From assembly GCA_003971905.1 (NCBI GenBank), contig RSEE01000004.1, positions 1,116,001-1,180,000 on the forward strand: a stretch of DNA of 64,000 nt. The letters run 5' to 3'. The notes under the pieces are model-generated. The model ran no database searches. It had not been told where the DNA came from and saw nothing but the letters and a program-made list of their open reading frames with translations. Origin of the DNA: Moniliella sp. 'wahieum'. Lineage: Eukaryota. The position numbers and the translations under genes are program-made. Shown piece after piece: positions 3,233 through 64,000 of the stretch. Every line of letters starts with the position of its first letter. Positions within the stretch are counted from its first letter, which is position 1.

Positions 3233-4485
3233 CTATGTTGGACCGAAGCTCATCAATGTCAATTTCCCAAACAACGCTTCATCTTCGGAAATGAGCCGTT
3301 CAGCCTCGAGTGCAGCCATACTGAGAAGGCAAAGGAGGTTAGTAGGCGAGTTGGACAGCACAGCGAAGCGATCGAGAAACGTACCATCCTGAGCCAGCGC
3401 TGGTAATCGCTTGCCGATACCCCGATCCTGGACATCCCCGGCGGCAAGAATCCCTTGACCGAGGTCTGCGTCTTGCCCGGCGTGTGAGGATGTATCCGTC
3501 CTCGTCGCAATCCACTTGGCCACGGACGAGATCGGTGGCTGGGCGTGCCCCACCGCATAGAACAGACCAGCAGCGGGATCACGCTCTCCTGGCCAGTCTG
3601 GTTATTGCGCACCTTGACCGCCCGCAACAAGTCCTCGTCGCCCTGGGCCTCAATCACCTCCGTCTCGTACCATACCTCAATCGCTGCCTGGGCGGCCAAC
3701 CGTTTAAACAGGATAGGGCTGGCCCGCATCTGAGGTTTGCGCACCAAGACAATCACTTTAGCCGCATACCTGGTCAAGTACAACGCTTCTTCGCATGCAC
3801 TGCTCCCGCCTCCAATCACGACAACCGTCTGACCACGAAAGATGGGTGCCCCCCATCGCACACAGCGCACGTCGAAATACCGATTGCCAGTACAATTCCT
3901 CGCAGGCAAGTGGAGCCGCTTGGCAGAGGCGCCGTTGCATAAATCAGGGTGTCGGCCAGTTCATAATCATCCTCGTCAATCGACTCTGGGGGAGGGATGG
4001 GATGGGCGCAAGGGCAACCTCGAACGGGTCACGTCGATCGCGCCAGAACCGAAAGGGCGGGAAGAGAGGTCGACCCTGGCAATGCGTCGGAAATGATGGT
4101 CGTACCAAACCGGAGGGCTGGGCACGGAACTTTTCCACAATGGCCTGCCCCGAGATGCCCTCTGGGAAGCGGGAAAGTTGCCAACGTCCGAGGTGGTGGT
4201 GAGGTCGCCCCCGGCCTGGGGCACTTCGGGCGCAGCATGGCGCGACGCATCCCCATGGTTCGTATCATCCAAGCCCAGCTCAGAGGGAAGACGTGGGCCT
4301 TCAAAAAGAAGGGGTGCAGGTTGGCCCGAGCCAAGTAGATGGCAGCCGTGTGCCCGCCGGGCCAGAGCCGACGATGACGGCGCTGTGCCGCGGGCGGGTC
4401 GCGGCGGGAGGGGGAGAGAGAGGATGAGGGAGGATGAGGGTCCGAGGGGGGCGCCGAGCTGCGGCCATGATGCGGTCATGCTCAC
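3233..4485 (-). CDS. TRR1: Thioredoxin reductase (low-Mr type), frameshifted in the assembly, with a short 3' intron (~3321-3384)
   Basis: Motifs across frames: VIVGSGPAG, LARANLHP, GGDLTTTSDVGNFP, YWQ-GISTCAVCDG active site, VVVIGGGSSACEEALYLT, AAGDVQD, and GSGC|MAALEAER joined over a gtacgt...ctaac...cag intron. Confidence 0.92.
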
Positions 4486-6418: not shown

Positions 6419-7136
6419 TCTGTCTATACCACGACCGTTTTTCGGTCATCTCGCAAAATGGGGAGATGGACAACGAGATGAGTGTGACGCCACACTGGTA
6501 TAGTCGGCGCCGGTAGCCCAAGCCCGAAACCTTTTTCGGTTCATTCATTCCAATATTCCTTCCTGTGCAGGGCAGGAATCCTCTCTAGCCTCTGTAGCTC
6601 ATGTTATGCAAAACACCATCAACTGCCTGCTCCCTGGCCTCCTATAGAGAGGCCCTATTTATTAGCTACATGAGATGTCGTACGAGCTGGATTTCTGTGA
6701 AAAGAAAGCGATCCGTGTCTACAAACCAGGACGCAGGCCACCTCACCAAAAAAGACCAACTCGGAGAGCGCCTGAGAGATCCCAGAAGTTTTAAAGCGGC
6801 CTATTCCATGATGTGCGTGAGGGTGTCGGCACTACAGAGTTGATTGTTCATCACCACTCAGGTGAACAGCATCTTTTACAGATGTGTTCATCAATCCGGT
6901 AAGCAGGCCGAAACTGTCTCTTACCCTCACATGCTCTGCGCGTACTCCAGACTCCACACAAACATTCCTCTCTTCGATAATGCTTTATTCGTTTTTCGTT
7001 CCCCATCACGGTCCATATGGTGGCCGCCACAGTGTCTCTTTCGTTCCCCCTTTACCCGTCGTGGGCGTGTTGACATATACGGCCATTTACGACCCCAAAA
7101 GACACTTCCATCACCTTTGACCCAGGCTGAATTTCT

Positions 7137-7376
7137 GCATCCATATCATTGACAGAGCTTAAGGCTGTGGAACGGAGAAACGCTACGCCTAAACGGACCC
7201 ATTCATCTTGCGTGTGCTGCCTGATATATTAACACCAACCCCGTTTGAGGAACCAGAGGAATCGCCAGGGGATCAGGATCCTCTGGTGCCCGCCATCCCT
7301 TCCATACCCGAGATAGCGCGTGTGTAGATACGGATGAACGTGGTAGACATCAGAGCGAGGAACCATTTCCATTGAG
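7137..7376 (+). repeat. Dispersed ~240-bp repeat, copy 1
   Basis: Shares blocks TCATTGACAGAGCTTAAGGCTG, AACGCTACG, TCATCTTG, GGAACCAG, ATCAGGA and CGGATGAACGTGG-GACATC-GAGCGAGGAACCATTTCCA-TGAG with the reverse complement of 11959-12188, and the first blocks with that of 16745-16924. Confidence 0.9.
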
Positions 7377-9348: not shown

Positions 9349-10723
9349 TTATTCTGTTTCGTCCAATCCCCCGCCTTGGCCGCAAGGGGCTGAAGCGGGA
9401 GCACACGGCGGCAGCGACAGCATCTCCCTGAGCATGTCATAGTCTTCCTGCTCTGGTGCGGTGGTAGGGTCGTGACCATAAAAGGACCAGTTACATGGGA
9501 ATAGCGGGTTGTTCGTAAAAATAGCCTCCTGGGCCTGGCCGGTAATATTGGCGTCGTTCGTCATGCGGTGGGGGATGACACCGAGAGTGTGTTGAAGTCT
9601 TGGTCGATCGGAGAATCCAGTAGGGAGACAAGATTCACCCCGCAGCCGCGAACATGTCTGCAAATGACGTATCTTCAACGCTACTTGCCTGTTGGAAGGT
9701 TGGAGTAGATGTGTCGTGGACCAGGCCCAAGCCTGGCCCTGTTTCGTTCCTGCCGGCATTGATGCCAGGATGGTTTACAATTTGGATTTTGAAGAATGCT
9801 TGGAGTCGGAACTGGAGGGAAAAAGGGATCCACATTGGTGAGGATGGGCCACGGAACAGAGGGCTGGGTGTTGGGGAGAGCATCATAGGTTCCATGGGAA
9901 ATAAGGGTGAGTTCTCTAATGGAGTAGTGGAAGAGCTGAAAGGGAACGTGGAGCCGGCTCTGCATGGGGTGAAAATGACAAAGTGGATGCCGGAAAGTGG
10001 GCGCATGCGGACCCTGCTGAGTCATGAGTGGCTTGACAAAGGCTGGGATGGGCTGCATTTCAGGCTGAGATACAGGAATATGCTTCTTTTGCATTTCCTG
10101 TTGCGTTTTCTGCCGTCGAGCATCACGGTTGCGCTGCCGTGCCTCCAGCCGGGCAATCTTCCTCTGCCCCTTCAAGCCGTGCACGGCGCATCCGTCTGGT
10201 TTCCCCCCGGGCCTGCTGGACCTTTTCCAAGGCAGCCCTATCGTGTCCTAGCTGGCGCAGAGCCAAGTCGGCATAAGCTAGTGTCCGTGTCTCCAGTGAT
10301 GAGTCGGGTGAAGCGCCTGGTGGAACTTAGCTGACTTTACTGATGAGGGGCTCTTGCGTGTAGAACGCGAGGATTTGGGTGCTTGAACTTCCAGTTGGGA
10401 TAGAGGCGCGCGTGCTCCCTCCCCTTTTCTTCAGCCCGAGCATGCCACTCACGCCGCTCGGGGGCTGGAAGATTGTGCCATACCGCTCTCAGGATCTGAG
10501 ATGCGTGACTCATGTGGGTGACTTGAGGCAACTCATCCGACTTAAGGAACCAGGAGCGGAAGAGCATGAAGGCGTTGGGAGGTCGTTTGATGTGCCCCGG
10601 CTCCCGTTTCTTCTTCGCATGGGATTTCTTGTGGACAGTAGACCCCCCCTTCTTGCAGGTCTCCAATGCTTTGCTGGGTGATGTATGAGAAATCAGTGTC
10701 TTATCGGAGCTGGTACTGCACAC
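9349..10723 (-). CDS. MATA/SOX-type HMG-box transcription factor with a low-complexity C-terminal region (boundaries uncertain; 5' part may extend to ~11129)
   Basis: SHAKKKREPGHIKRPPNAFMLFRS...SQILRAVWHNLPAPERREWHARAEEKGREHARLYPNWKF is a canonical HMG box; downstream minus-strand ORFs 9349-10184 likely continue it via frameshifts or introns. Confidence 0.85.
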
Positions 10724-11958
10724 AGACCCGCGCCCAAGCCAGGCGTTTTCTCCTTCCCCATAATCGCGCTGCAGAGTATGGATCGTCAGTATTTTCTTTC
10801 GTTGGCTGAATCAGGAGAGGATGCCCACTTACTATGAGCGCGGGTGACCAAGACGGAGAAAAGTTTAGAGTCGACGCGTGGGCCTTTGGGCAGCCCGTCC
10901 ACAACCGTACATGGAGGGGACGGCATGATAATGATGGGCGTCGAAACGAGAAGAGGAATGGGTTGAATAGGGTGTTGATGGCGGAAGGAGGGGAAGAAGG
11001 AGATGTTGATAGTGGGGTGCGCTTCGGCAGCAAGCGACATATATATATGCCGTGATGATACGGATCGGCTGGGAGACCATCCCACCGTCCGAGAGTCACC
11101 GTAGTAACCCCCTTTACGCTATCATCCATTATTTCTGACGGCCTGGCTGTGTGTTATATACATGTTATAGGACAGAGGTGTCGCAACGGGACGGGAGAAT
11201 ATGGAGATGCCGTGCACAACGCCAGAACGTATAGCATATCGCACCCTACACAGACCCTGGCTCCGGCCCAGGGACCATCAACAGTTGCCACGCATGCGTG
11301 TGTAGTATATTGCGGGGAAAGCATGCACACTGACAACAGGGAGCAAGGCACACACACTGTGATCGATGATTGGTTTTGGCGGGGGTTGTCGGCGCGCGTC
11401 CTCCACACAAATACTGTTTAGTAGCCTCGGGCCCTGAGGGAGATCCGAGGGCTTGAGGCCCTGATACCTAACGCTTATAGGCCTGGGCGCCTGAGCGGCC
11501 TGAGCGCCTGAGCAACCTGAACCCCAGAAGGCTCAGCTGGCCAGGAAAGGGACTTCGTGCATCGCCAGAAGGGACTCCGGGGGTGCCGAAAAGTGTGAGA
11601 GTATAACATAAAAAATCACCGATAACGCGCTCCCGTTTTACATTTTGCTCCTGCTGAGGCTGACGCGCTGACACGTCGCGGTGACACACACCAGTCAACG
11701 TCTAGTTGCATTTCCTCATACCGCTCTTGTTGCAATATGCCGCCAAATCGGTTGGCAATGCCGGCATAAATCTGTGGCTGCAAACCGTTTTTTTCCTCCG
11801 ACGTGATATTATTAGTGCTGTAATTTAACATATAAGCCTACCTACCCTGTGGCAAGCGCCCGGTTCTGGGTCTAACAAGTTAAAAGGGGCGGGGTCATGC
11901 TATTAGGTCAGAACTTGGGAACGACCTCTCTGTTTTATAAGGAGTTGGCTACCAAGTC

Positions 11959-12188
11959 TCAGTGGAAATGGTTCCTCGCTCGGATGTCAACCACGTTCAT
12001 CCGTGTCCATACGCGCTTCCTAGGGTACGGGACCGGATGGCGAGAGCCGGAGGGTCCTGATATCCTGGCGATACCCCTGGTTCCTTGACTTAGTGGCGCT
12101 TCCAAGTAACCCCCGCAAGATGACGGTTCGGTTTAGACGTAGCGTTCCCCCTGTCCCAGCCTTAAGCTCTGTCAATGAAATGGACGCG
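11959..12188 (-). repeat. Dispersed ~240-bp repeat, copy 2 (inverted relative to copy 1)
   Basis: ctcagtggaaatggttcctcgctcggatgtcaaccacgttcatccg...cagccttaagctctgtcaatga is a diverged reverse complement of copy 1. Confidence 0.9.
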
Positions 12189-12633: not shown

Positions 12634-12706
12634 TTGAAACGTTGAACGTCAACTGACCAATGACCAGTGACCGCTGACCGCTGACCGCTGACCGGTGACC
12701 GTTGAA
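12634..12706. repeat. 7-bp-period TGA-N4 array
   Basis: TGA CCAA TGA CCAG TGA CCGC TGA CCGC TGA CCGC TGA CCGG TGA CCGT TGA. Confidence 0.85.
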
Positions 12707-12967: not shown

Positions 12968-13243
12968 GGCGTCACGCGTCAGCGCCACTGAGGCCCTTGA
13001 ATGAAGCTTGAAGCTTCAACTTGAAGCTTGAAGCTTGAAGGATGATCGATGATGCATGATGTTGATGATGCAGATGCATGATGCATGATGCATGATGCAT
13101 GACATGTGACATGTGACACGTGACGCGTGGACGTCACACGTGTCAAACCTTGGATCTTGGGCCAGAGTCTCACGCTCACTGAGCTCAGGCTCAGTACTCA
13201 GTGCTGGTACTGATTGAGCGAGCACTGAGGCGCTGAGCTCCAT
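12968..13243. repeat. Long compound 7-bp-period palindrome array upstream of the symporter gene
   Basis: TGA AGCT TGA AGCT TGA AGGA TGA TCGA TGA TGCA ... (TGA TGCA)n TGA CATG TGA CATG TGA CACG TGA CGCG, then TCA GTAC TCA. Confidence 0.9.
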
Positions 13244-13659: not shown

Positions 13660-16471
13660 ATGACGCAGCACCTCACCACATCCCAGGGCAATGCCCTGGT
13701 CTACTCCACTCTGGTCGGCTTCATGTTTGTTGGCCTCTTTGCCGGCTGGCATGTGAGCCGTAAAGACTACATCTCAGGCGTCCGCACCCAAAGCAGTATG
13801 TTCTCTCCCCTTACTTCCTGACGTTGTGTACGGTGTGGATATTGACATTTTTCTTTTCTCATCCCCTTTCAGTTATCCCACTCACATTGAATTGGATCGC
13901 ATCAAGTTAGTTTTCTCACATACCAGACCCGATGTTTTTGAGCACCAGGAACAGTCTGCGCCTTGTACGGACAAGGCATCCTCGTTTATCGGCAGTCATG
14001 GATCAAGGTATGCAACACGATTTTCATCCCGTTTTTTTTTGGCCTGAAGGGGAAAGTGCCTCGGCACGTAACCCTCGCTCGACACGCACACTAGGTAAGA
14101 GATGGGGCGGCCGCCGGCCAGGCTGGGTTTTCCTCCTGGCAGGGTTCTGCGGCTGCTCTGTCGCTGCACTCGTGCAGTTCACTGTATCTTGCCCTCTCCC
14201 TCTCCTATCTTCCTTCTCTCCTTTCTTGGACCCGAAGGTCCAGTTTGGCTTGGCTCATTGAGCCAAGTAAGTTATTGCTAATTAAGTTTGCAGCTACACT
14301 TCCCGACTTCGCCGTTGGGCTGAAAGCGGTCCCTTTGGATCTAGTCAAGGTGGACGGACGATGGGACGGAGCAGGCCAAGAACGGTGGACTCAGAGATGG
14401 GGGCTGGCCTCAGTAACCCCCTCTTTGGTGTCGTACACAGCCAGTTACGGGTGTCCTTCAGTTTAATGTCTGCCTGCATTTGTTCCTTCGGCGCAAAGCA
14501 AGTGACAAGGCTGTTGGGCTGAGATTATACCGTCATCGCTTTGGTCACTCAGGCCTGAGAGGTGATTCTCTTGCAGTGTCTGTGGGGCTTTTGCGATTGT
14601 ACCTGATCAAGTTCATGCTTGCGAAGGGATGCTGCGTTTGTGCACTTGGCAAAGGAGATGGTGTGGCCATTGGGGTACTTTGGGACACACCCTCTGCCAT
14701 CACTGGATTCCAGTTGGCCTGTTACCTCCCCTTGGTTCTCCTTCTCACCATCCTTCCCCCGTTCCCACTCTTGTTGTGACTTTGGGTTGGAGTTGGGATT
14801 TAACCCATCCCCTCCATCCCATTTGTCTTAACAGAGCTACTTGTGGGTTCCACGTGAACTGCATGGCTGACTTCCCTTGCCTGTTTTTCTGCAGATATGT
14901 CTTCGTCGCTTCTCTTTGGGTATCCCAACTCGCCGTCATCCCAGGCGCCGGGATCTTGGGGCTTGCGCGTACTCATTTGGCACAATTTTGCCTCTTTGGT
15001 TCTTCCTCTGGCTTGGACCTCAGATCCGAAAGTTGGCCCCTGAAGGCTTCGTCCTGAGCTCCTTCTTCCACAAGCGTATGGGTGGTTCTGGGCTGTCTAT
15101 CTGCTCTTTGCGTACGTTCTCTTCTCTCATTAAGAGGTGCAGTGTAAGGTATTGACACTCTTTACTCAGTTCGTCGGATTCATTTTCACGTTCATGCTGG
15201 TAGAGCTCAACACCTACGGGAGTGTTGTGAAACTCTTGGCGGTGTGGATCCCACCATCGGCTCTTGTGGTGGCTATCACGACCACCATCTATACGGCTTA
15301 CGGCGGGTTCCGTGCTTCGCTTTGGACGGACAATGTCAATGCTGTGGTGATCGTCATTCTCATGGTTATGACCGGTGCTGCTATTGGTACCAAACTTGAC
15401 ATCAGTCATGAGCGTATAATCGAATCGGGGTTGACCAAACCGCAATGGCTCGGCGCTAGCTTGTGGTGGGTCTTGCCCGCGGCGCTGGTCTTCAGTCAAA
15501 TGATCAATCAGGGCTTTTGGCAACGTGCCTTTGCCAGTAAGGATGACCGTACCCTCTTTTGGTCTGTGCTCCTGGCCAGCCCCATCTTGTTCGCCATCTG
15601 CTTCTTGGTGGGTATGACCGGCCCCCTGCCCAATGGGCAGGTCTGTTTAATGGACCCACCGATTCGATGATGGAGAGGACACCTTCTTTTACATTTTGGC
15701 TACCTTGCCAGCTGGGTGCAGGGCACCGTTTTGGTTCTTTGTGGTGCCCTGTCATCAAGTGCATACGATACATTCCAATCGGCTCAGATTTCAACCATCT
15801 ATGGCGACTTGTTTATGGGCAAGGTCAACATTTGGATTTGCCGGTTTATCCTTCCTCATCAATGTCCCCTCGGTTGTCTTGGCTGTCAAAACATCGACAT
15901 TCTTGAAGTATTTTCAGTGGCCGATCTGGGGGCCGCTTGCGTGCTTCCCGGTCCTCTGCTTGGTTTGATTCCAGCGCTTTGGTTCCTCAATGGGTTCGAT
16001 GTTTTTATTGGCGCTTGTGGCGGGTTCTTTACTGTCTTCCTCTTTGGCTTGGTCTTTTACAAGGGCGACGTGAAGGAGGCGGGTGATTTGATCGGCCTTC
16101 CCGACGGTCTTTACGTGGAGAACTACTCGGTCTTTGGTGCCTTCTTTGCTGCGCCTATTGGCTCGGTCCTTTGGACCTTTGCTGCGTTTTTGTTCCGTGC
16201 GGCAGGTATGTGGGTTGTCTGCCGTTACACCGGATGGGAGTACGATGTGTTTGACAAGGAGAAGCGCGCCCTTCGTCCCCATGAGTGGACCAACGACGAT
16301 GCTCGTCCGGTTGATCTGCAAAAGGAGGACGTTGAAGGTCAGCCGGACGTCATCCTCCCCTCATTCTCCCCGGACACCAAGCCTGACGATGCCATTGAGC
16401 CCGCTGGGTCTGATTCGAAACATCCCGGCATGGACGAAGAAGCAAGTCAGACATTGTCAAGGACGGCCTGA
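13660..16471 (+). CDS. Sodium:solute symporter family transporter (DUR31/NCU01977-like; probably for thiamine or a precursor). Exon 1 13660-13795, exon 2 13873-13905, exon 3 from 14895
   Basis: Spliced translation MTQHLTTSQGNALVYSTLVGF...GVRTQS|IIPLTLNWIAS|NMSSSLLFGYPQLA..., then TTIYTAYGGFRASLWTDNVN and QGFWQRAFAS; GT-AG introns 13796-13872 and 13906-14894 (branch gctgac at 14866). Confidence 0.88.
14442..14634 (+). ncRNA. TPP (thiamine pyrophosphate) riboswitch aptamer in intron 2 of the symporter
   Basis: P2 acgg(14447)/ccgt(14530); GGTG then P3 gtcc..cagttt/aggctg..gggc; conserved CTGAGATTATACC (14519-14531); conserved ACCTGATCAAGTTCATGCTTGCGAAGGGA (14601-14629) with P5 caagt/gcttg; weak P1 cagt/gctg. 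Confidence 0.92.
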
Positions 16472-16744: not shown

Positions 16745-16924
16745 AGGCGCGCTACCTTAGGTGTGGGAACGGATGCCGGGCACCAGAGGGTCCTGATCTC
16801 CTGGTGGTTCCCTGGTTCCTTAAGCGGGGTTGGCGCTATCAAGCAGCACACCCAAGATGAATGGGTCGGGTTAGGCGCAGCGTTTCTTCTCCCCCAGCCT
16901 TAAGCTCTGTGAATGATATCGATG
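16745..16924 (-). repeat. Dispersed repeat, copy 3 (truncated, ~180 bp)
   Basis: cgcgctaccttaggtgtgggaacggatgccgggcaccagagggtcctgatctcctgg...caagatgaatgggtc...cagccttaagctctgtgaatgatat aligns with copies 1 and 2. Confidence 0.88.
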
Positions 16925-17023: not shown

Positions 17024-17053
17024 AAGCTTCAAGCTTCTTCAAGCTTCAAGCTT
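17024..17053. repeat. AAGCTT-C heptamer array upstream of eIF4A
   Basis: aagcttcaagcttcttcaagcttcaagctt. Confidence 0.8.
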
Positions 17054-17567
17054 TTTGCCGCAGCTCCGTCCCCGCACGGAAAGCCAATATAGCTTTTCAT
17101 CCCGCCGCCGTGCAACTCATGCGCGGGGGCGGCCTGGAGTGGCACGGCGCCAGTGGCCCGCCCTCCCTCGGGCCTGCTCACGCTCGCATGGGCCAGCGCT
17201 GGCGCTGCTGCCCCTGCTGACCCGCTCAACCCCCAGCACAGCGTCAGTGTCCTCCGCCTCGCCTCTTTAGGAGCGCATATACGCGCACAGCCGATACGAG
17301 GCCTGGCTTGCCACCGACCGCTGCTGGACCGATGCCTGTCTCTGCTTTCCACCACCACCTCCACGCAGGCCCGCTTCCGCACTCAGTGCGTATTGCCCAA
17401 GCCCGTCCGGCTCTTGTCCGTGCTGCGACTGACCTTCTGTGCACTTCCGTTATCCTTTTCTACCTCTGCTCCTCTCATACACCATAGGAAAGAGCACCCT
17501 CGTAACCCATCCATTTGTTCACTATGTCGGGATTGATCCCGTTGCTTCTGGCGGTAGCACCGATCCT

Positions 17568-18732
17568 ATGGCTGAGCCTTCGATTGAGTCCAACTGGAAC
17601 CTGGTTGTCGATAACTTCGACACCATGGAGCTCAAGACGGAACTCTTGCACGGCGTATACGCTTACGGGTTTGAGAAGCCCTCGTCCATTCAGGCGCGTG
17701 CGATCGTTCCCATTATCAAGGGAAACGACGTGATTGCCCAGGCCCAGTCGGGCACCGGCAAGACAGCTACGTTCTCTATCGCCATTCTCCAGCGCATTAA
17801 CGAGACTGTCAACAAGACCCAAGCTCTTGTTCTGGCACCAACTCGTGAGTTGGCTTTGCAAATCCAGAAGGTCATCCTTTCTCTGGTCGAATACCTCAAA
17901 ATCAACTGCCACGCCTGCGTCGGCGGCACTCGCATCTCGGAAGATATTGCTCGCCTTCAAGAGGGACCCCACATTGTTGTTGGTACCCCTGGTCGTGTGT
18001 TTGACATGATTGACCGTGGTCACTTTGTCACTAGCAATCTCAAGATGTTCTGCCTTGACGAAGCCGATGAGATGCTCTCTAAGGGGTTCAAAGAACAGAT
18101 GTATGAGATTTTCCAACGCCTACCCCAGGACACTCAAGTTGTTCTCCTCTCCGCTACCATGCCCACCGATGTGCTGGAGGTGACCAAGAAGTTTATGCGT
18201 AACCCTGTGCGCATTTTAGTCAAGCGTGACGAGCTGACCCTTGAGGGTATTCGTCAGTTCTTCGTCTCCATCGGAAAAGAAGACTGGAAGCTGGCCACGC
18301 TATGCGACTTGTACGAGACACTCACTATCACCCAGGCCGTCATATTCTGCAACACGCGCCGCAAGGTCGATTGGCTCACTGATCAACTTACGAAACAGGA
18401 ATTCACCGTCTCGGCCATGCACGGTGACATGGAGCAATCGCAGCGTGACGTAATTATGCAAGAGTTCCGTTCGGCTCCTCTCGTATTCTCATCACGACAG
18501 ACCTGCTTGCCCGTGGCATTGATGTTCAACAGGTGTCACTAGTGATTAACTATGACCTTCCTACCAACCGCGAGAACTATATTCACCGCATTGGCCGTGG
18601 CGGTCGCTTTGGCCGTAAGGGCGTCGCCATCAACTTTGTCACTGAGGATGATATCTCCATGATGCGCGAGATCGAGAAATTCTACTCGACTCAAATTGAG
18701 GAGATGCCGATGGACATTGCTGACTGATTTAA
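17568..18732 (+). CDS. TIF1: Translation initiation factor eIF4A (DEAD-box helicase); one apparent assembly frameshift near 18473; start may be the upstream ATG at 17524
   Basis: [69 protein letters not shown]. Confidence 0.97.
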
Positions 18733-26680: not shown

Positions 26681-26776
26681 AGGCTGCAGCCGGGATCGAA
26701 CCGACGACCTGCGGCAACTACAAGTCTGGGGCATGCTCGCCGAAGACCGCCACTCTGGCCACTGAGTTATGCAACC
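26681..26776 (-). tRNA. tRNA-Arg(TCG) with a ~23-nt intron
   Basis: Minus strand GGTTGCA TA ACTC AGTGGCCA GAGT G GCGGT CT TCG G [intron] T GCCGC AGGTC GTCGG TTCGATC CCGGC TGCAGCC T, followed by a T-run terminator; the isotype assumes a canonical 37/38 intron. Confidence 0.85.
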
Positions 26777-33928: not shown

Positions 33929-35087
33929 ATGACCGCCGATATCCGCGAGACTCAACTCGACGTGCCCCAGGTCGCCACCAAAGCCGTCTTCTCGAAGAAG
34001 GGTGGCCCCATTGAGTTCGTCAAGTACGACCCTGCGGCCATCCAGCTTAAGGAAGGTGAGATTCTGGTGCGCATCACTTACACGGGCGTCTGCCACACGT
34101 ACGTATACTTCTCCTTCCCCTGCATTGTCGCGCAATGTGCTGACGACTCTTCTAAAGCGACCTGCATGCCATGCTTGGAGACTGGCCCCTCGCCACCAAG
34201 CTGGAATCAACGGGCCAGCCTCTTGTTGGTGGCCACGAAGGTGCGGGTGTGGTAGTCAAGCTCGGGACTGGCTCCGATCAGTGGGTCAAGAAGGGCGACC
34301 GTGTTGGTATCAAGTGGGTCGCAGATGCTTGCCTCAACTGTGACTACTGCCGCGTCGGCTACGAGTCGACCTGCATTCACCTCGAGAACTCTGGGTACAC
34401 TGTGGATGGTACGTTCCAGCAGTACGTTGTCTCGACGGCCAAGTACGTGACCAAGATTCCCGACAAGCTCGCCCTCGTCGATGCTGCACCCATCCTTTGC
34501 GCTGGTGTCACCATTTACCGGGCACTGAAGGAGGCGAACCTTGAGCCTGGACAGTGGGTTGTTCTGCCGGGTGCTGGTGGTGGTTTGGGCCACTTGGGTG
34601 TGCAGTACGCCGCAGCCTTGGGTACCGTGTCATTGCGGTTGACACGGGCGCGGAGAAGAAGGCGTTGGTCGAGAAGTTGGGCGCAGACGCCTGGATCGAC
34701 TTCAAAGAGTCGAAGGACATTGTCGGCGATGTCAAGGCACTTACGGATGGCCTCGGTGCTCATGCGGCGGTTGTTGCTGCCGCTAGTGACTCGGCTTATA
34801 CCCAGGGCCTCGCTTATATTCGGCCGCGTGGCACTCTTGTCACTGTGGGTATGCCGCCTGGCACGGTGATTAAGGCGGATGTGTTTGACACGACTGTCAC
34901 CGCCAAGAAGATTGTCGGCTCGATTGTGGGCAACCGGCAGGACGCCCTCGACTCGCTTGCCCTGGCGGAGCGGGGCAAGGTTAAGGTGATCTACCAACTC
35001 AAGGGGCTGTCGGAACTCAACCAAGTCTACGACGACATGCACCATGGCAAGCTTGCTGGCCGTATCGTACTCGACGTCGACAAGTAA
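33929..35087 (+). CDS. ADH1: Zinc-dependent alcohol dehydrogenase (MDR family); intron ~34099-34157
   Basis: GVCHT|DLHA, GGHEGAGVVV, GDRVGIKW, structural Zn CLNCDYC..C, APILCAGVT, GAGGGLGHLGVQYA, GSIVGNRQD, GRIVLD. Confidence 0.96.
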
Positions 35088-39532: not shown

Positions 39533-41768
39533 ATGGTCGCCACGATTGACCTCCTTATTCTGGGAGGGCTGGGCCTGCTCACTGTTCTTTTCCTCTTCCG
39601 AGGCGTTATCTTGGCTCCTCCCGACCCTCGGCTGCCGACAAGTTTGCCCAGGCTGACGACACGGAAGCAACCGACTTTGTTACCAGCCTCCAGTCCCAGG
39701 TGCGTTGTCCTGCCTGCCCTCCCTTTTTTTCTCCCTTGTATGCCTCCTTGCCAGCGGCCCCTAACCTCTTGTGGTTCGTGCGCTCAGAACAAGCAAGTTG
39801 CCATCTTTTTTGGTTCCCAAACCGGCACTGCAGAAGAGTATGCGATCAAGTTTGCCAAAGAGCTCAAGGCCGTTCGGTACTTCGCCCTTGGTCCTCGACC
39901 CTGAAGACACTGACTTCACCAAGCTCGACACTCTTCCGGAGAACTGCATGGTCTTCTTTATGGCCACCTATGGCGAGGGTGAGCCAACGGACAATGCAAC
40001 CCAGTTGATGGAACTTTTGGAAGACGATTCGGCGGAATTTAGCCAAGGCTCTTCTCGAGGGCGTCAAGTACGCTATCTTTGGTCTGGGTAACCGCACCTA
40101 CGAACAGTACAACAAGGTGTCACGCACACTTGACGCCCGTCTCGCTCATTTCGCGCGACCAAGGTGGGCGAGCGTGGCGAAGGTGACGACGACAAGAGTT
40201 TGGAAGAGGACTACCTGGCGTGGAAGGATGACGCGCTGGTGGCGATTGGAAAGGCACTCGAATTGCATGAGGGTGGCGGCGGAGACGTGTCGACTTTGTT
40301 GTCACGGAATCTGACATGCCTGTGGACGACTCCAAGGTGTTCAAGGGCGAGTTGTCGTCTCGTGCGTGACCAAACCAAGGCCGTACATGATGCCAAGAAC
40401 CCGTATGCAGCGTCTATTTCGACCACCTACGAAGTGTTCCCCGACTCGCCCGACCGGTCCTGTGTGCACATGGAGTTTGATCTCGAGGGATCGGGTATCA
40501 ACTACCAACATGGCGATCACCTGCTGTCTGGGCTAACAACCCAGACCATGAGGTGGCACGTCTCACGTATATTTTGGGTCTTTCCGGCAAAGAAGATGTG
40601 AAGATTGATGTCAAGTCGCTTGATCCGACGCTGGCGAAGGTGCCGTTCCCCACGCCTACGACCTACGAAGCTGTGCTGAAATACTACCTCGACATTGGTG
40701 CCAAGGCGGGTCGTCAATCGCTTGTCGTCGTCAAGTTTGCGCCGAACGAGAAGGCGGCAGCGGAGCTGAACCGCATTGCCCAGGACAAGGAATACTACAA
40801 TGCAAAGGTGGGCTTTCTCTTACACTCTTGGTCAAGTCTGCAACTGGTTGCTGGTGACTCGCTTGCAAAGGAAGACGTGGCTAAATCCACGCCGTGGGCA
40901 ATTCCATTTGACCGGATCATCTCTTCGGTCCCTCGTCTGGGTCCCCGCTTTTACTCCATCTCCTCGTCTCCCAAGCTCCATCCGAACAAGGTGCACATCA
41001 CTGCTGTTGTGCTCCGGTACACGCCGACGGCGAGCTCGCCCTCGTCAGGCGGTGGCACACCCATCTGTTACGGGTCTGGCGACCGGTTTCATCAGCCAAT
41101 TGCGCATGGTGGCTCTCAGCCAAACCCCTACGGCCCTGAGGACCCCAAGTTTGGTACACGGTCTATTCGTTCTTGGTCCTAGGAACGCTTATGGTCCCGC
41201 CGGGCCCGGAATGAAAGTCCCGTTCACGTGCGTCGTAGCAATTTCCGCCTGCCCACCAGTCCCAAGGTCCCAGTCATCATGATCGGACCCGGTACCGGTG
41301 TGGCCCGTTCCGTGGGTTTGTGCAAGAGCGTGTCGCGACGGCGCGCAAAGCCAAGGCAAAATACGGCAATGGCGACGCTGCCCTGGCGGACTGGGGCGAC
41401 ATGTGGCTGTTCTATGGCTGCCGCAAGGCCGATGAGGACTTTTTGACAAGACGGAGTGGCCCGAGTACAGTGCTGAATTGGCCGGTAAGCTGCACATGGA
41501 AGTTCTCTGTCACGCGAAAAGTTCAAGCCGGACGGGAGCAAGTTGTATGTGCAGGACTTGATCTGGGCGCAGCGCGAAGCGTTGGCCAAGGCCATCCTGG
41601 AGAAGCGGGCATACATTTACATTTGTGGCGAAGCGAAGGGCATGGCACAAGAAGTGGAAAAGGTGCTGCAGCGCATTCTCGCGAAGCCAAGGGCTCCGAG
41701 GCTGCGGGACTCAAGGAGTACAAGCTGCTCAAAGACCGGTCGCGGCTGCTACTCGACGTGTGTCTTAG
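39533..41768 (+). CDS. NCP1: NADPH-cytochrome P450 reductase; intron ~39699-39787
   Basis: [95 protein letters not shown]-terminal LLDV(W)S. Confidence 0.96.
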
Positions 41769-47580: not shown

Positions 47581-50500
47581 CAAGAGGCTGTTACACGTTA
47601 TGTTACGCGTCTCTGTCAATGCGATCTATATCTTTGACGAGGACATTCGCCCCTTAGTTGCCTATTCATATTTTCTGTTCTTGCCCACGTATCGTCTCCT
47701 TTGGGGACGGAACGCTGCGAGCCCACACTTGTTTCCTGGTTCCCCGCCTGTGGGAATGGGGGTCTCCCCTTGTGTGGCGACTGTGCTCCCCACAGCTCCT
47801 TTATATCTCCCTATTCTCTCTCTCTCTATGACGTTAAGGTTTTCCCCCACGGTCCATCGGCGTCTTTACCTTCTTCGATTGACGATCCATTAGTGTCTCC
47901 ATCTTCGTCCATCCGCACAGTAGTGAGGCAATACTACTTTTCCTCTCTCCTCCTATAATAGTTCTCTGTCTCCGCCTTTCTTGCCACCTCTTCAGTCCCA
48001 TCTCTCTCAGCTCCAGCTCTTCGACCGCTCAACAGTGCTCGGCCTTTCGTATCCATAGTCACTGGAGCTTCCGGTCACGATTTCAGCACCACAACTCCAA
48101 AAATCTAAAGGTTTCTATTCTAAGTCCAGTCAGGGTAGCGTTGCCTCCCGCTACTCTGTCTCCCTGTCCCCAATAAGTCTGGGAAAGCATTCTGACACGT
48201 CATTACTGACCTACGCAGCTTTTTTTGCTTCAAAATTGGGCGTCTCTAGTATACTATATAGCGGAAGGATCCTCTCAATATCGGTTATCCCTAGATGCAC
48301 ACCACAATGCATAACAAATGTGGCCAAAATACGAATAGACCCGCGAGTCGGCACTTTTTCCGACTTGCAAGGAATTGTATCACTATACGATATCCGGTAG
48401 GCGTGGGCCCACGCTATGTTGGGATCCGCTCGTGACAAGGCCCTCCACATTGTCGATCCACACTAAGGGTGGCTCTCGCGCTTTCAGCAACAGCATCCCT
48501 TCGGTTTCCGTTCAGACTGTATCTCTCCACGCCAATGCTCCGATGTATTCTAGTTTCTGCGTATAGAGCGCGTGCACAGCTGTTGAAAGTGATTCTCTTA
48601 TGCACAGAACCAGGAATGATAGTAACTATGACTGGCAGATTGATTTCCCTGTAAAGTTGCTGTATAGCGCGTTTGTTGTCGCCTTCCCGACTATATACTA
48701 TTGCATCACTCTATAGGGGTGCATATATGGGACTCCATGTCTTCATCAGGTGTTTTGTCAAGAATGGAACACACACGGAGACGAATGAATGCTTCGCCCC
48801 ATTCCAACCTACCGCCAGATGGGAGAAGTGACCCAACGAGAAACGAGCTCTCCTGGTGGAAGGACAGGATATGTGACGACGGAGGTTGCTGGATTCTGAT
48901 CCCAAGTGGAATCCTTTTCTGCCCACCGGATACCAGCCTCACGGAGGACTTAACACGTTTCAGATACACAATCCAAGGGACACTGGTGTGGGCGTAGGAG
49001 GGTCGCGAGTAGTGTGCTTTGCTACTTTCGTGGGGCAGAGCCAGGCAGCGTCCGAAAAGGAGGTTGTTTGCACGTTAAGGGGGCGCTGCGACGTGAAAGC
49101 GGGGACCGCTGATGGGCGAGGGAGGGCGAGGAAGCTAATGAAAAAGGCGGTTCGTCTAGAGTGGAGTGCTTAGAAGAAAGGGAGAGTACGGGGGAAAATG
49201 CTGGGCGGATTGGTCCACTGATCACAATTGTGATCGAACTAAGCACAGACACAGGCTTTATATAAGAGGGGAGAAGGGGAAGAGGACCAATAGGGTTACA
49301 GAGTAAACTGGAAACGAGTCAAGGGGACAAAGCGAGGGGCCAAGGACAAAATGCGCGAGGCGAGAGACGAGGTGAGGGCCAAGTGCAAACCGACCCGAGA
49401 CCAGAAACTGAATCGAAAACATGTCTGTGTAGTTCGGAGAGTTTCAGATGAGAGATGATTGATGAGTGGGTTTTATAGATACTAAGGACGAGAAGTCGAG
49501 TCGAGACAGTGAGTGATATAGGGAAGATAGTGAATGATAGAGAACTTGAAAAGGTGGTGATGTATTAATAGGAAGGGAAGCGGAGAAGTGGATGCAACGA
49601 TAAAGGAGTATAGAGGTGGCCGCGCGAGGCATCTTAGTTCCCTGACCTGATGTGAGACAGGATACACTCTCAGAAGCATATGGCCTCTCGGTTTCAAACA
49701 TCCCGCGGATTATTATGATAGACATGTCTCCTCGGTCTCCCTCTAGTACTGCAACTGAAGGGGATGATGACAGGGCCGTTATTCACAACTATATCAGACG
49801 AGAGAAAAACGCACAAATAAAAGTTATATGTTCACAACTTCTTCTCTGGCCGTTTCCCTCGATTCGCTTTCTACACCTCTGTGCTCGACAAGGCGTTGAC
49901 GATGAATGAATATATAGTACTCAAGGGTTACGCCAACAAGCACGGTACATGCCGGATGTGCAACAGGTCGGTTTAGGCAAAGCATTTCTTTGTCCCCGCC
50001 TTAAGCGTTGTAAATGATATAACTGTGCGCAGTAGATAAAAGGCGTGACCCAAAAGCAGCAGAGATGACCCCGAAGAGGAAATCGCGTCCCAAAAATAGG
50101 ACAATGAAGGAAGATACCGCAACGTGGCAATCTGGGTTTGGGCGTAAAAAGAAGACATGTGGTGGCCCGCGTTACATCGTTCTCTGGTGCACTGAATGCC
50201 TGTGGAAATATAATCTGTGGACCTTTGGGCCTTGTCGACGTTGAAGAAGGATTGAGCGGAGACGGGATACTCTGCCTTATCCGTCTTCGGTCCGGGGGGT
50301 CGGTGTCACCCTCTCCTCCTGCCAGGAAACGTGGGATAGAGAAAAAGGAAGTAAAATGATTGAATACATATCTATGGACGGACTGGAGGTATATATTTCT
50401 TAAAAGAAAGAGGGGAGCATAGTCGAGAGGTGGACACATGATCTCCCAACTGATAGGAACCACAGCATAGTGCCCATACGGGCCTAGTGGGCCAATGGTC

Positions 50501-62002: not shown

Positions 62003-64000
62003 TTACCCGCCCAACAGGGGATGGTCATGTAGATGGTGCTGCAGACAAAGCGAATGGTCGAAGCAATGGCGACCCAGACTAAAATGACAAGCATGTACAC
62101 CTTCTGAAGCGAGGCGGTACTCGAGTCGAACGCGCTGCCGCGCTTTCCTCCCGATAGGATCACAGCCATAAGCAAAGATTGGACAGACCCAAGCCAAACG
62201 ACGTTGGTGCGGACGTTGCGATAGTAATCCATCTGCTTCAACTGCTGTTCCTCGACCGAAGGGGGACCCTGGACAATGACCGGACGATCCTTGAGGTTGA
62301 TCAGGGCATCGTGGTAGGCGGCATCAATGTCGGCTTGCCCGTTGGGCAACACCAGTTCCACCACTCCTTTTCTCCCTTCTTGCCACAACGGCCCGGCCCA
62401 AGTCGTTGGAGACGGAATGGTCGCCCTTGGTCCCCCACGAAAAGTCGTGCAAATTGCAAAACGCATACACGTTGAGAATGTTGGCCATGTCGGACTCAGG
62501 AGCATGTACTGCAACATGCTGGTGAACAGGTAGGACGGGTCGAGCGCAATCAAAGAGGCAGCGACATAGACGCCATACGTGGAGAGTACAGAGTAATCAT
62601 CTCAGCGTAAATGCCGGTATGTTCGCCCCCGAGTACACGGACAAAGCAGATCACAGCCGCAATGAGCATGTACACCATCAGTACGGCAAAAATCGCTGCG
62701 ACCGTGTAGTACTTCCATTTCGAGCCTTGGGGCCGGTTTCCAAGAGCAAAGATGAAGCAACTAACCAGTGACCCAATGTAGACATACTGGGTGATGGTGT
62801 GAGCACGTTGATATGAGGAAGATGAAACTGGGGGCCTCAAGACCTTGGGTGAGGATCACAAAAAAGATGAACATGTTGCCTACTGTGAACCAGGAAAAGA
62901 CAAGATTTAAGAGGTTGTAAAGGGCTTGGATGCCCAGCATGGCTTTGCGCATGGGTGTGTGCCCGCTCGCACCTAGTTGACGTGTATGAACCAGGGCGTA
63001 TAAGCCAGCAAAGAAAGATCCGTTGAGCCAACGCCTCCGCTGACTGATCAGCTCCGCCAGGTCTGTGGGCACGTCCGTCACCGCTCGAGCCGACTTGACG
63101 TATTTGAGAACCCACCCCGCGTTCCGCTTGGCTGCCAACTCAAAGCACAAGATACGATCCTCGGCCATGTACATGTTGGAGGTGAACACGTCGGCTTCAG
63201 CGCCCAAGAGCGTCTCGCCTTTAAAGTACGAGGCCAATGGTCCCTTGCCGTCCTCATCGTTTGGAGGGCAATGTACCCGGTAGGCTGAAAATGCACCAGG
63301 TAAGACGGAAATGAAGCCAAAGACAGACTCGGTAGTTTTGTCCAAGATGTTGGAAATCTTGTACTCAAAATTTTGTGCTGCCACGAGCGGGTTAAGCAGG
63401 GCAGGTCCAATCCCCCACTTGCCCCTGGTATCAGCGCAAATCTCCCGCAGGCACCAGCCACATTTGAGTTGATATCGAAGGACTTCCACAAATGGTACAA
63501 TGACTTGGGCTCCGGTCGAGTTCCCACGTCCAGAAGCAGGCAAACGTTGGGCTCAAGCACACGAGAGAAGGGTTGAAAAACCAACGGTGAGAGTTAATCT
63601 TCTTCTGGTTATGCTCCTTGAGACAAAAGATGATTTGACAGGGAACCAGTCCTTTTCGGCACCCTTGAAGCGCATGTTGGGATCCAAACTGAGTTGCGCA
63701 GTGTACTCATAGACGTGTGCCTTTACGACTTGGTCATTGACCGTGTTTTTGCCACCCCGTCTTGGTACACACCCAGGGCAGCCAGACAGTCGAGCACTCG
63801 GGGATGAATCTTCTTGCGCCCATCCGAAACAATTGCGACTACGACCTTTTGCCAACCATGCTGGCCCCAAGTCTTGCTGCGTGTGCGCGAACAAAGATGA
63901 GCAATGTTCTTCATCACACCGTGCATGGTCCGGGTAAAAACTGATGAGGAGGAATGGTCAGATATCCCGTCAGGCGGATGGTCGAGAAAAACACTTACGC
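62003..64000 (-). CDS. Chitin synthase (division 1, class I-III), 5' part outside the window
   Basis: [87 protein letters not shown]. Confidence 0.97.

Follow-up and report, generated by a model that had tools for sequence, protein, structure and literature searches.

The closest described counterpart of the element analysed here is the thiamine pyrophosphate (TPP) riboswitch in an intron of the Neurospora crassa transporter gene NCU01977, the mechanism of which was tested experimentally (Li and Breaker 2013, PMC3597705) and which is classed as 'Type II' in Mukherjee 2018 (PMC5882874). As described in passages of the former, an element named alpha, usually less than 60 nucleotides (nt) behind the first donor site (S1), pairs with the 3' strand of aptamer stem P1 at low TPP, and the pairing matters more than the sequence of alpha. 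Candida DUR31 transports thiamine according to passages of Donovan 2018 (PMC5997356), in which deletions were pyrithiamine-resistant, and the supplement of that work names the N. crassa protein, ESA43834.1, as DUR31, riboswitch included. The DNA analysed here is a 64,000-nt stretch of Moniliella sp. 'wahieum' (assembly GCA_003971905.1, contig RSEE01000004.1, positions 1,116,001-1,180,000, forward strand), referred to as the window. We regard it as probable, by analogy with these systems, that a DUR31-type thiamine transporter gene in the window carries an intronic TPP riboswitch, an OFF switch that would work most likely as in Neurospora.

The gene model starts at the ATG at 13660, has introns of 77, 989 and 57 nt and ends at the stop at 16471. 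A first-pass annotation of this DNA had put the second intron at about ten times the length of the others; the ratios to the 77- and 57-nt introns are in fact 13 and 17. The SSF domain PF00474 was recognized in exon 4 at 34.6 bits (cut-off 22.8). Among named proteins, 'urea transporters' of Ustilaginomycotina come closest (Violaceomyces, 71%; Tilletiaria, 68%), N. crassa ESA43834.1 matches the window with a tblastn E value of 5e-60, and the same protein shares 41% identity with Ustilago maydis UMAG_12200 over ~490 residues. The family profile aligned with the solved DUR3 urea symporters with only E ~4e-8 over ~130 columns. Intron 2 lies at the same protein position as in N. crassa, after LNWIAS here and LNFIAS there. 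A tree of 35 rows, calculated by a quick method with no DUR3 row, placed the window inside the Ustilaginomycotina clade (100) beside the N. crassa DUR31 group (95), its place within the clade not being firm. By these sequence comparisons the window gene is a Ustilaginomycotina orthologue of NCU01977/DUR31. The proposal of the first-pass annotation that the protein imports thiamine or a precursor rather than urea agrees with the orthology to N. crassa DUR31 and the distance from urea-type DUR3; thiamine as the substrate itself follows by analogy from Candida DUR31.

Relatives were taken from one metagenome scan, which gave 18 loci (L001-L018). Two of these end before the intron, 13 were parsed and three duplicate parsed loci exactly over this region. 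They reduce to seven distinct types, five Malassezia-like, one Tilletia-like and one near Violaceomyces/Ustilago; counts over eight loci below refer to eight distinct loci, the window plus these seven relatives. An aptamer occupies the same intron position in all 16 loci that cover the region (18 fetched), in introns of 254-1418 nt.

The aptamer that had been predicted at 14442-14634 was borne out by motif mapping, folding and covariation. The UGAGA pyrimidine pocket, the GCG and G-G pyrophosphate pocket and the loop L5 sequence UAAU are listed as TPP riboswitch features in passages of PMC5882874; CUGAGA, GCG and the G-G 18 nt apart are invariant in 8/8 loci. Across 11 aligned aptamers (related rows, four of them near-copies, with the structure drawn from the window) 98.6% of cells pair and two-sided changes occur in 6/20 pairs; 0/500 shuffles were as good, and slid controls paired in 32-47%. 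The comparison with the Rfam TPP model proposed in the first-pass annotation failed at the gathering score of 54.3 and succeeded under relaxed settings (35.3 bits, E 8.6e-05). The relaxed match spans 14526-14646 and its 5' half is wrong, being built on a second CUGAGA (14555) inside an insertion. This inner register was ruled out, as it breaks P1 and P2; the outer register covaries. At the gathering score none of 12 loci, 11 of them aptamer-bearing, was matched, and under relaxed settings six of the seven types of relative scored 32.5-39.0 bits, the seventh giving no match at E 0.1. By analogy with its orthologues the window aptamer would be expected to bind TPP.

The TPP family descriptor is a three-way junction with a short J2/4, and the window departs from it. 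Its J2/4 contains a 67-nt insertion that is predicted to fold as one hairpin (-25.7 kcal/mol; 5/300 dinucleotide shuffles as stable). J2/4 is also long in 7/7 distinct relatives (21-107 nt), with no common sequence, and folds better than dinucleotide shuffles in six of the seven types and in 12 of the 13 parsed loci (0-14/300 as stable); the exception is L003 (43/300). Changes within J2/4 of the near-copies L013-L015 keep pairs, and some break pairs. The A that flanks P4 on the 5' side is kept in 8/8 loci. In the folding model the hairpin replaces the short J2/4 bulge and produces a four-way junction. Because it is also predicted in the free-state fold, we consider it most likely a tolerated peripheral helix, possibly adjusting folding, and not a switching element. 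The three-way junction of TPP riboswitches has been described as a k-junction with a bulge of 1-2 nt, the presence of which impairs ion-induced folding (passages of PMC10573300), and contacts of J2/4 are described in passages of PMC2018614 and PMC3764141; the hairpin appears to sit at this bulge. It accompanies sub-threshold Rfam scores in the sequences compared and is one possible cause of them; long P3 stems lower the Rfam score as well (passages of PMC11683625).

Prokaryotic genomes were scanned with a pattern for TPP-like sequences with at least 18 nt before P4, which gave at least 118 matches (L019-L136); no frequency was derived, because the pattern forced a long junction. Among the matches listed, 106 fold a hairpin (97 at z <= -1.5) and 98 have no second P2-like strand. 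When 20 chosen matches, mostly long, were compared with Rfam using 150-nt flanks, which may clip some, two passed, both ordinary P3a types, and 0/18 true cases did. Most of the 80 matches listed by title are from Bacteroidota. A hairpin unique to fungi was thereby ruled out, at least ~100 bacterial aptamers having one. Riboswitches often carry variable stem-loop insertions, P3a being the one named for TPP, according to passages of Barrick and Breaker 2007. No account of a fungal aptamer with a hairpin in J2/4 was found in the literature, although figures, subscription papers or supplements may contain one and its absence from print is not established; the hairpin is not mentioned in the passages seen of PMC4260697, bioRxiv 10.1101/867226, Mukherjee 2018 (PMC5882874) or PMC11683625.

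Within the upstream intron the P1 3' strand pairs best with alpha (-28.8 versus -25.3 kcal/mol), and the window pairing was matched by 5/150 and 2/150 shuffles. Over the eight loci, cognate pairing was better than mismatched pairing in each of eight settings (2, 2, 4, 5, 15, 86, 153 and 337 of 40320 permutations). In the whole-intron fold of the window most positions of the alpha helix have a pairing probability of 0.93-1.0, with P1, P2, P4 and P5 dissolved. In folds of the seven relatives the partners of the switching strand, alpha', lie no more than 120 nt from S1 (mean 0.43-0.77), with hardly any pairing beyond (0.00-0.02); L013 is ambiguous in this respect, its P1 falling inside the 120-nt range. 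No site in the upstream intron stood out as a long-range partner of the J2/4 hairpin, P3, P4/P5 or the P1 5' strand. Judged from these comparisons, alpha/alpha' complementarity is partner-specific and conserved. Together with orthology and the shared intron position, this supports by analogy the NCU01977-like switch that the first-pass annotation had suggested. As a separate observation, P4 of L001 (~1120-1152) is altered, with G-U for C-G; the alpha of this locus has a matching change and holds the second donor.

The in-frame TAG noted directly behind S1 is indeed in frame, and the protein ends after 57 amino acids if S1 is unused. The consensus-like downstream donors of the first-pass annotation are present at 14008, 14095 and 14267, but their number is not clearly above chance, as detailed below. 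In 8/8 loci a G/GTA donor (slash at the splice point) is present no more than 150 nt from S1; the single-locus chance is 0.12-0.49 and the joint chance ~1e-4 if the loci are independent, the motif and the 150-nt range having been chosen after looking. The first such donor is non-productive in 8/8 loci, through a stop in seven and a frameshift in one. The window has the Type II arrangement of an aptamer in a long coding-region intron of a DUR31 gene with at least two donors, here predicted, of which only S1 is productive. An in-frame AUG at 13998, 10 bases before S2, was rejected as an alternative start; on visual inspection only one of the seven relatives (L002) has such a codon in frame.

At low TPP, alpha' would pair with alpha, which lies ~650 nt upstream and closely follows the weak S1; this helix would loop out the downstream donors and favour removal of the whole intron, so that transporter is made. 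With TPP bound, P1 and P4 would reclaim alpha' and S1 would be used less. Use of the downstream donors, or retention, would then leave in the RNA the TAG that follows S1 by three bases, and yield a dead product of 57 amino acids. The choice of donor under TPP is here projected from the orthologues. On sequence grounds the element is a structural variant of the TPP riboswitch. It is filed as such because the short J2/4, UAAU, the alpha consensus and the Rfam score all fail, while the bases that contact the ligand are retained, as is the switching geometry.

Several observations weigh against this mechanism. The 535 nt examined contain three strong donor-like sites, where shuffles average 1.19 (P ~0.11; strength scored with our own weight matrix). 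The alpha consensus RGCGGYRRY is exact in 0/8 loci, alpha pairing alone is not significant in L002 (31/150 shuffles) and L008 (55/150), cognate pairing ranks top in only 4/8 rows, and the best duplex lies elsewhere than the assigned alpha in 3/8 loci (L001, L002 and L008). The distance from the aptamer (GGGA) to the acceptor is 265 nt (relatives, 40-389 nt); in ascomycetes alpha' commonly lies less than 60 nt from the acceptor (passages of PMC3597705). L5 is UCAU in the window and 3/7 relatives, with UAAU in the other four, and the top P1 pair of the window is U-U. About 11 frameshifts, mostly single-base losses, interrupt the transporter coding region. Finally, the aptamer fold lies 10.3 kcal/mol above the free fold, and S1 is paired with the branch point in the free-state fold but released in the bound state, the opposite of the simple model. 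The comparative result was given more weight than these energies because minimum-energy folds of 1 kb ignore co-transcriptional order and ligand energy. The L5 difference, as far as the alignment goes, is natural variation within the lineage. Beside these points stands a further complementarity: the S1 region (13904-13912) is complementary to the branch point (14865-14873), and the duplex energies in the 8/8 loci that show this range from -5.7 to -8.6 kcal/mol; GTTAGT is the donor in 5/8 loci, and the complementarity is partly generic to any donor.

The alternatives differ in which part of this scheme they replace. The switch may be real with intron retention as the main high-TPP outcome, as for C. 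parapsilosis DUR31, and with incidental downstream GT sites; we consider this unlikely, though it carries appreciable weight. Beyond the unremarkable number of donors, by the same weight matrix 3/7 relatives have no strong alternative donor in the intron and two more have one only 3' of the aptamer; passages of PMC3597705 report that no single alternative donor is essential in N. crassa, unspliced Candida RNA increased with thiamine in passages of PMC5997356, and both sources describe retention as a high-thiamine product too. The G/GTA donor near S1 in all eight loci speaks for donor choice instead. A hybrid platform, in which the alpha helix not only loops out but also covers or abuts the second donor, like donor masking in NMT1-type switches, seems improbable. 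The predicted helix overlaps the G/GTA donor in L001, L003, L012 and L013, and the free-state fold of the window pairs S2 (14007-14011) with the J2/4-P4 boundary (14599-14603); against this, the donor lies ~23 nt past alpha in the window and ~68 nt past it in L006, and the bound-state model pairs S2 about equally.

The other two alternatives question control by thiamine or its transport. We think it very unlikely that the aptamer is a relic, or crippled by the insertion so that TPP control is lost, or that this gene copy is a pseudogene. The frameshifts, the deviating L5 and P1 and the impaired k-junction folding reported for bulges at the hairpin position (passages of PMC10573300) all favour such a loss. 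The ligand-contact bases are nevertheless invariant over relatives that have diverged widely and share the insertion, and the bacterial aptamers described above carry it too. Predicted riboswitches without a thiamine response have been reported in diatoms, a further point in favour of such a loss. The frameshifts are probably assembly errors, because the neighbouring eIF4A-type gene is split likewise, no frame exceeds 395 amino acids and the breaks are mostly single-base losses. That intron-poor DEAD-box gene (17547-18727) is divided over two frames by a frameshift near 18470, with Helicase_C model positions 2-63 and 64-110 in different frames, and the longest stop-to-stop frame in the 64-kb window is at most 395 amino acids. 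Indel errors of the assembly may also affect the aptamer, for example the U-U pair of P1. It is likewise doubtful that the main substrate is not thiamine itself but a precursor, such as hydroxymethylpyrimidine (HMP), a polyamine or urea. Databases label the family 'urea transporter', and according to passages of PMC5997356 the first description of DUR31 was as a transporter of spermidine, precursor transport was proposed for algal orthologues and the support in Candida comes from pyrithiamine-resistant deletions; TPP control, however, would imply a thiamine-pathway substrate, and urea-type DUR3 is only distantly related. An intronic OFF switch on a thiamine transporter, acting through S1 and alpha/alpha', remains the reading that we prefer. 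The J2/4 insertion, the alpha element and the frameshifts are additions to the first-pass annotation. The coordinates of all features are given in Table 1.

Table 1. Features of the transporter gene and its riboswitch in the window (stem coordinates give 5'/3' strands).
Feature	Position	Strand	Details
Exon 1, DUR31/NCU01977-type sodium:solute symporter	13660..13795	+	Starts at ATG 13660
Intron 1, 77 nt	13796..13872	+	
Exon 2, 33 nt	13873..13905	+	
Intron 2, 989 nt, putative riboswitch	13906..14894	+	GTTAGT...CTGCAG
Productive donor S1, GTTAGT, weak	13906..13911	+	In-frame TAG 13908-13910
Alpha element, predicted	13964..13985	+	S1+59 to +80; helices 13964-13972:14636-14644, 13975-13981:14627-14633, 13982-13985:14621-14624
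Candidate donor S2, G/GTATGC	14008..14013	+	
Candidate donor S3, GTAAGA	14095..14100	+	
Candidate donor S4, GTAAGT	14267..14272	+	
TPP aptamer	14442..14634	+	P1 14442-14446/14630-14634; P2 14447-14452/14529-14533
Aptamer P3 (long)	14454-14518	+	Followed by CUGAGA 14519-14524
Insertion in J2/4, 67 nt, one hairpin	14534..14600	+	Outer stem 14535-14539/14593-14597; from folding
Aptamer P4	14602-14604/14625-14627	+	
Aptamer P5	14608-14611/14618-14621	+	
Alpha', predicted switching strand	14621..14644	+	P4 and P1 3' strands plus flank
Branch-point-like GCTGAC	14866..14871	+	Acceptor CAG 14892-14894
Exon 3	14895..15111	+	Four apparent single-base losses
Intron 3, 57 nt	15112..15168	+	Read from sequence
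Exon 4, SSF domain PF00474	15169..16471	+	Seven apparent frameshifts

The surroundings of the gene were also inspected. Among 44 window frames scanned, 10 of which matched domain families, no thiamine gene was found. Pieces of other genes encode an HMG-box protein (10340-10810, -), a cytochrome P450 (25573-26202), a zinc alcohol dehydrogenase (34156-35084), an FAD-binding reductase (40481-41179), a chitin synthase (62764-63552, -) and a pyridine-nucleotide oxidoreductase (3262-3960, -). A tRNA gene at 26681-26776 (-) has an anticodon-loop insertion, probably an intron. A dispersed repeat of ~160 nt occurs at 12030-12185 (+), 16766-16922 (+) and 7134-7303 (-), with a partial copy at 49966-50020 (+); the copies are 73-84% identical and two flank the transporter gene. 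The upstream copy gave no convincing Rfam match and the repeat has no match in L001-L018; it is possibly a short mobile element. Intergenic tandem runs near the gene lie at 12660-12700, 13005-13110 and 17025-17055 (7-mer, AAGCTT-type and GCATGAT-type).

The regulatory logic has been published, and the gene would be a further member of a known system. The long-range pairing of Li and Breaker appears to be kept in a distant basidiomycete lineage with its sequence replaced, which amounts to a natural compensatory test. TPP switches of smuts, Malassezia and bacteria are probably under-counted in surveys, because the recurrent extra junction helix goes with sub-threshold Rfam scores in every case tested. 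The Malassezia skin yeasts have compact versions (introns of 254-456 nt) that would be experimentally convenient. A simple explanation can also be offered for two published 'Type IV' entries. Passages of Mukherjee 2018 (PMC5882874) give 23 basidiomycete rows, in which this subphylum is represented only by M. globosa (Type IV) and Tilletiaria anomala (Type II), with no row for Ustilago, Sporisorium or Pseudozyma. The M. globosa interval corresponds to L012 3098-3210 (98.8% protein identity to M. globosa), which lies inside a 454-nt intron 2 behind two unannotated exons, and the published interval is without the 5' strands of P1 and P2. By eye, J2/4 of the published M. furfur sequence forms a hairpin of 17 nt, and no other complete record in one part of the PMC11683625 sequence file (42 in all) has a long J2/4.

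A bolder joint reading, which we advance as speculative and rather improbable, would make the four-way-junction TPP aptamer a subphylum-wide property of Ustilaginomycotina DUR31 and would match it, on the eukaryotic side, to a bacterial subclass so far overlooked, with a hybrid platform. Selection would act on the hairpin, placed at the k-junction bulge that governs folding, to retard or destabilise closing of the aptamer; a weak P1 would then be outcompeted by the long-range alpha helix as long as TPP is not high. That helix would mask the second donor in several members, merging two known fungal mechanisms. The 'Type IV' entries on the DUR31 gene would be annotation artefacts, and switches would have gone unnoticed in U. 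maydis and its relatives.

As regards known systems, the bacterial RF00059 riboswitches with a J2/4 hairpin, mostly from Bacteroidota, resemble the window in carrying a sequence-variable hairpin at the same site and scoring below the Rfam gathering threshold, but they are prokaryotic leaders without splicing. The 'urea transporter' riboswitches of M. globosa and T. anomala (passages of PMC5882874) and M. furfur (passages of PMC11683625) belong to the same gene and subphylum; both Malassezia entries are filed as non-splicing 'Type IV' elements of the 5' untranslated region, unlike the intronic switch proposed here. C. parapsilosis DUR31 (passages of Donovan 2018, PMC5997356) shares the family, the OFF logic and a stop after ~57-58 amino acids without S1; it differs in having only two donors, a consensus first donor and retention as the main outcome at high thiamine, and in belonging to an ascomycete yeast. 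N. crassa NCU01977, as described in the passages cited above, is closest: an orthologous gene with the switch in the second intron at the same codon position, a first donor that is the productive one, a stop in every other product and an alpha ~60 nt after S1 that pairs with the P1 3' strand. The window differs from it in having no RGCGGYRRY, an intron of 989 instead of 684 nt, 265 nt between aptamer and acceptor, a J2/4 hairpin, a UCAU L5 and a stop codon inside the donor itself.

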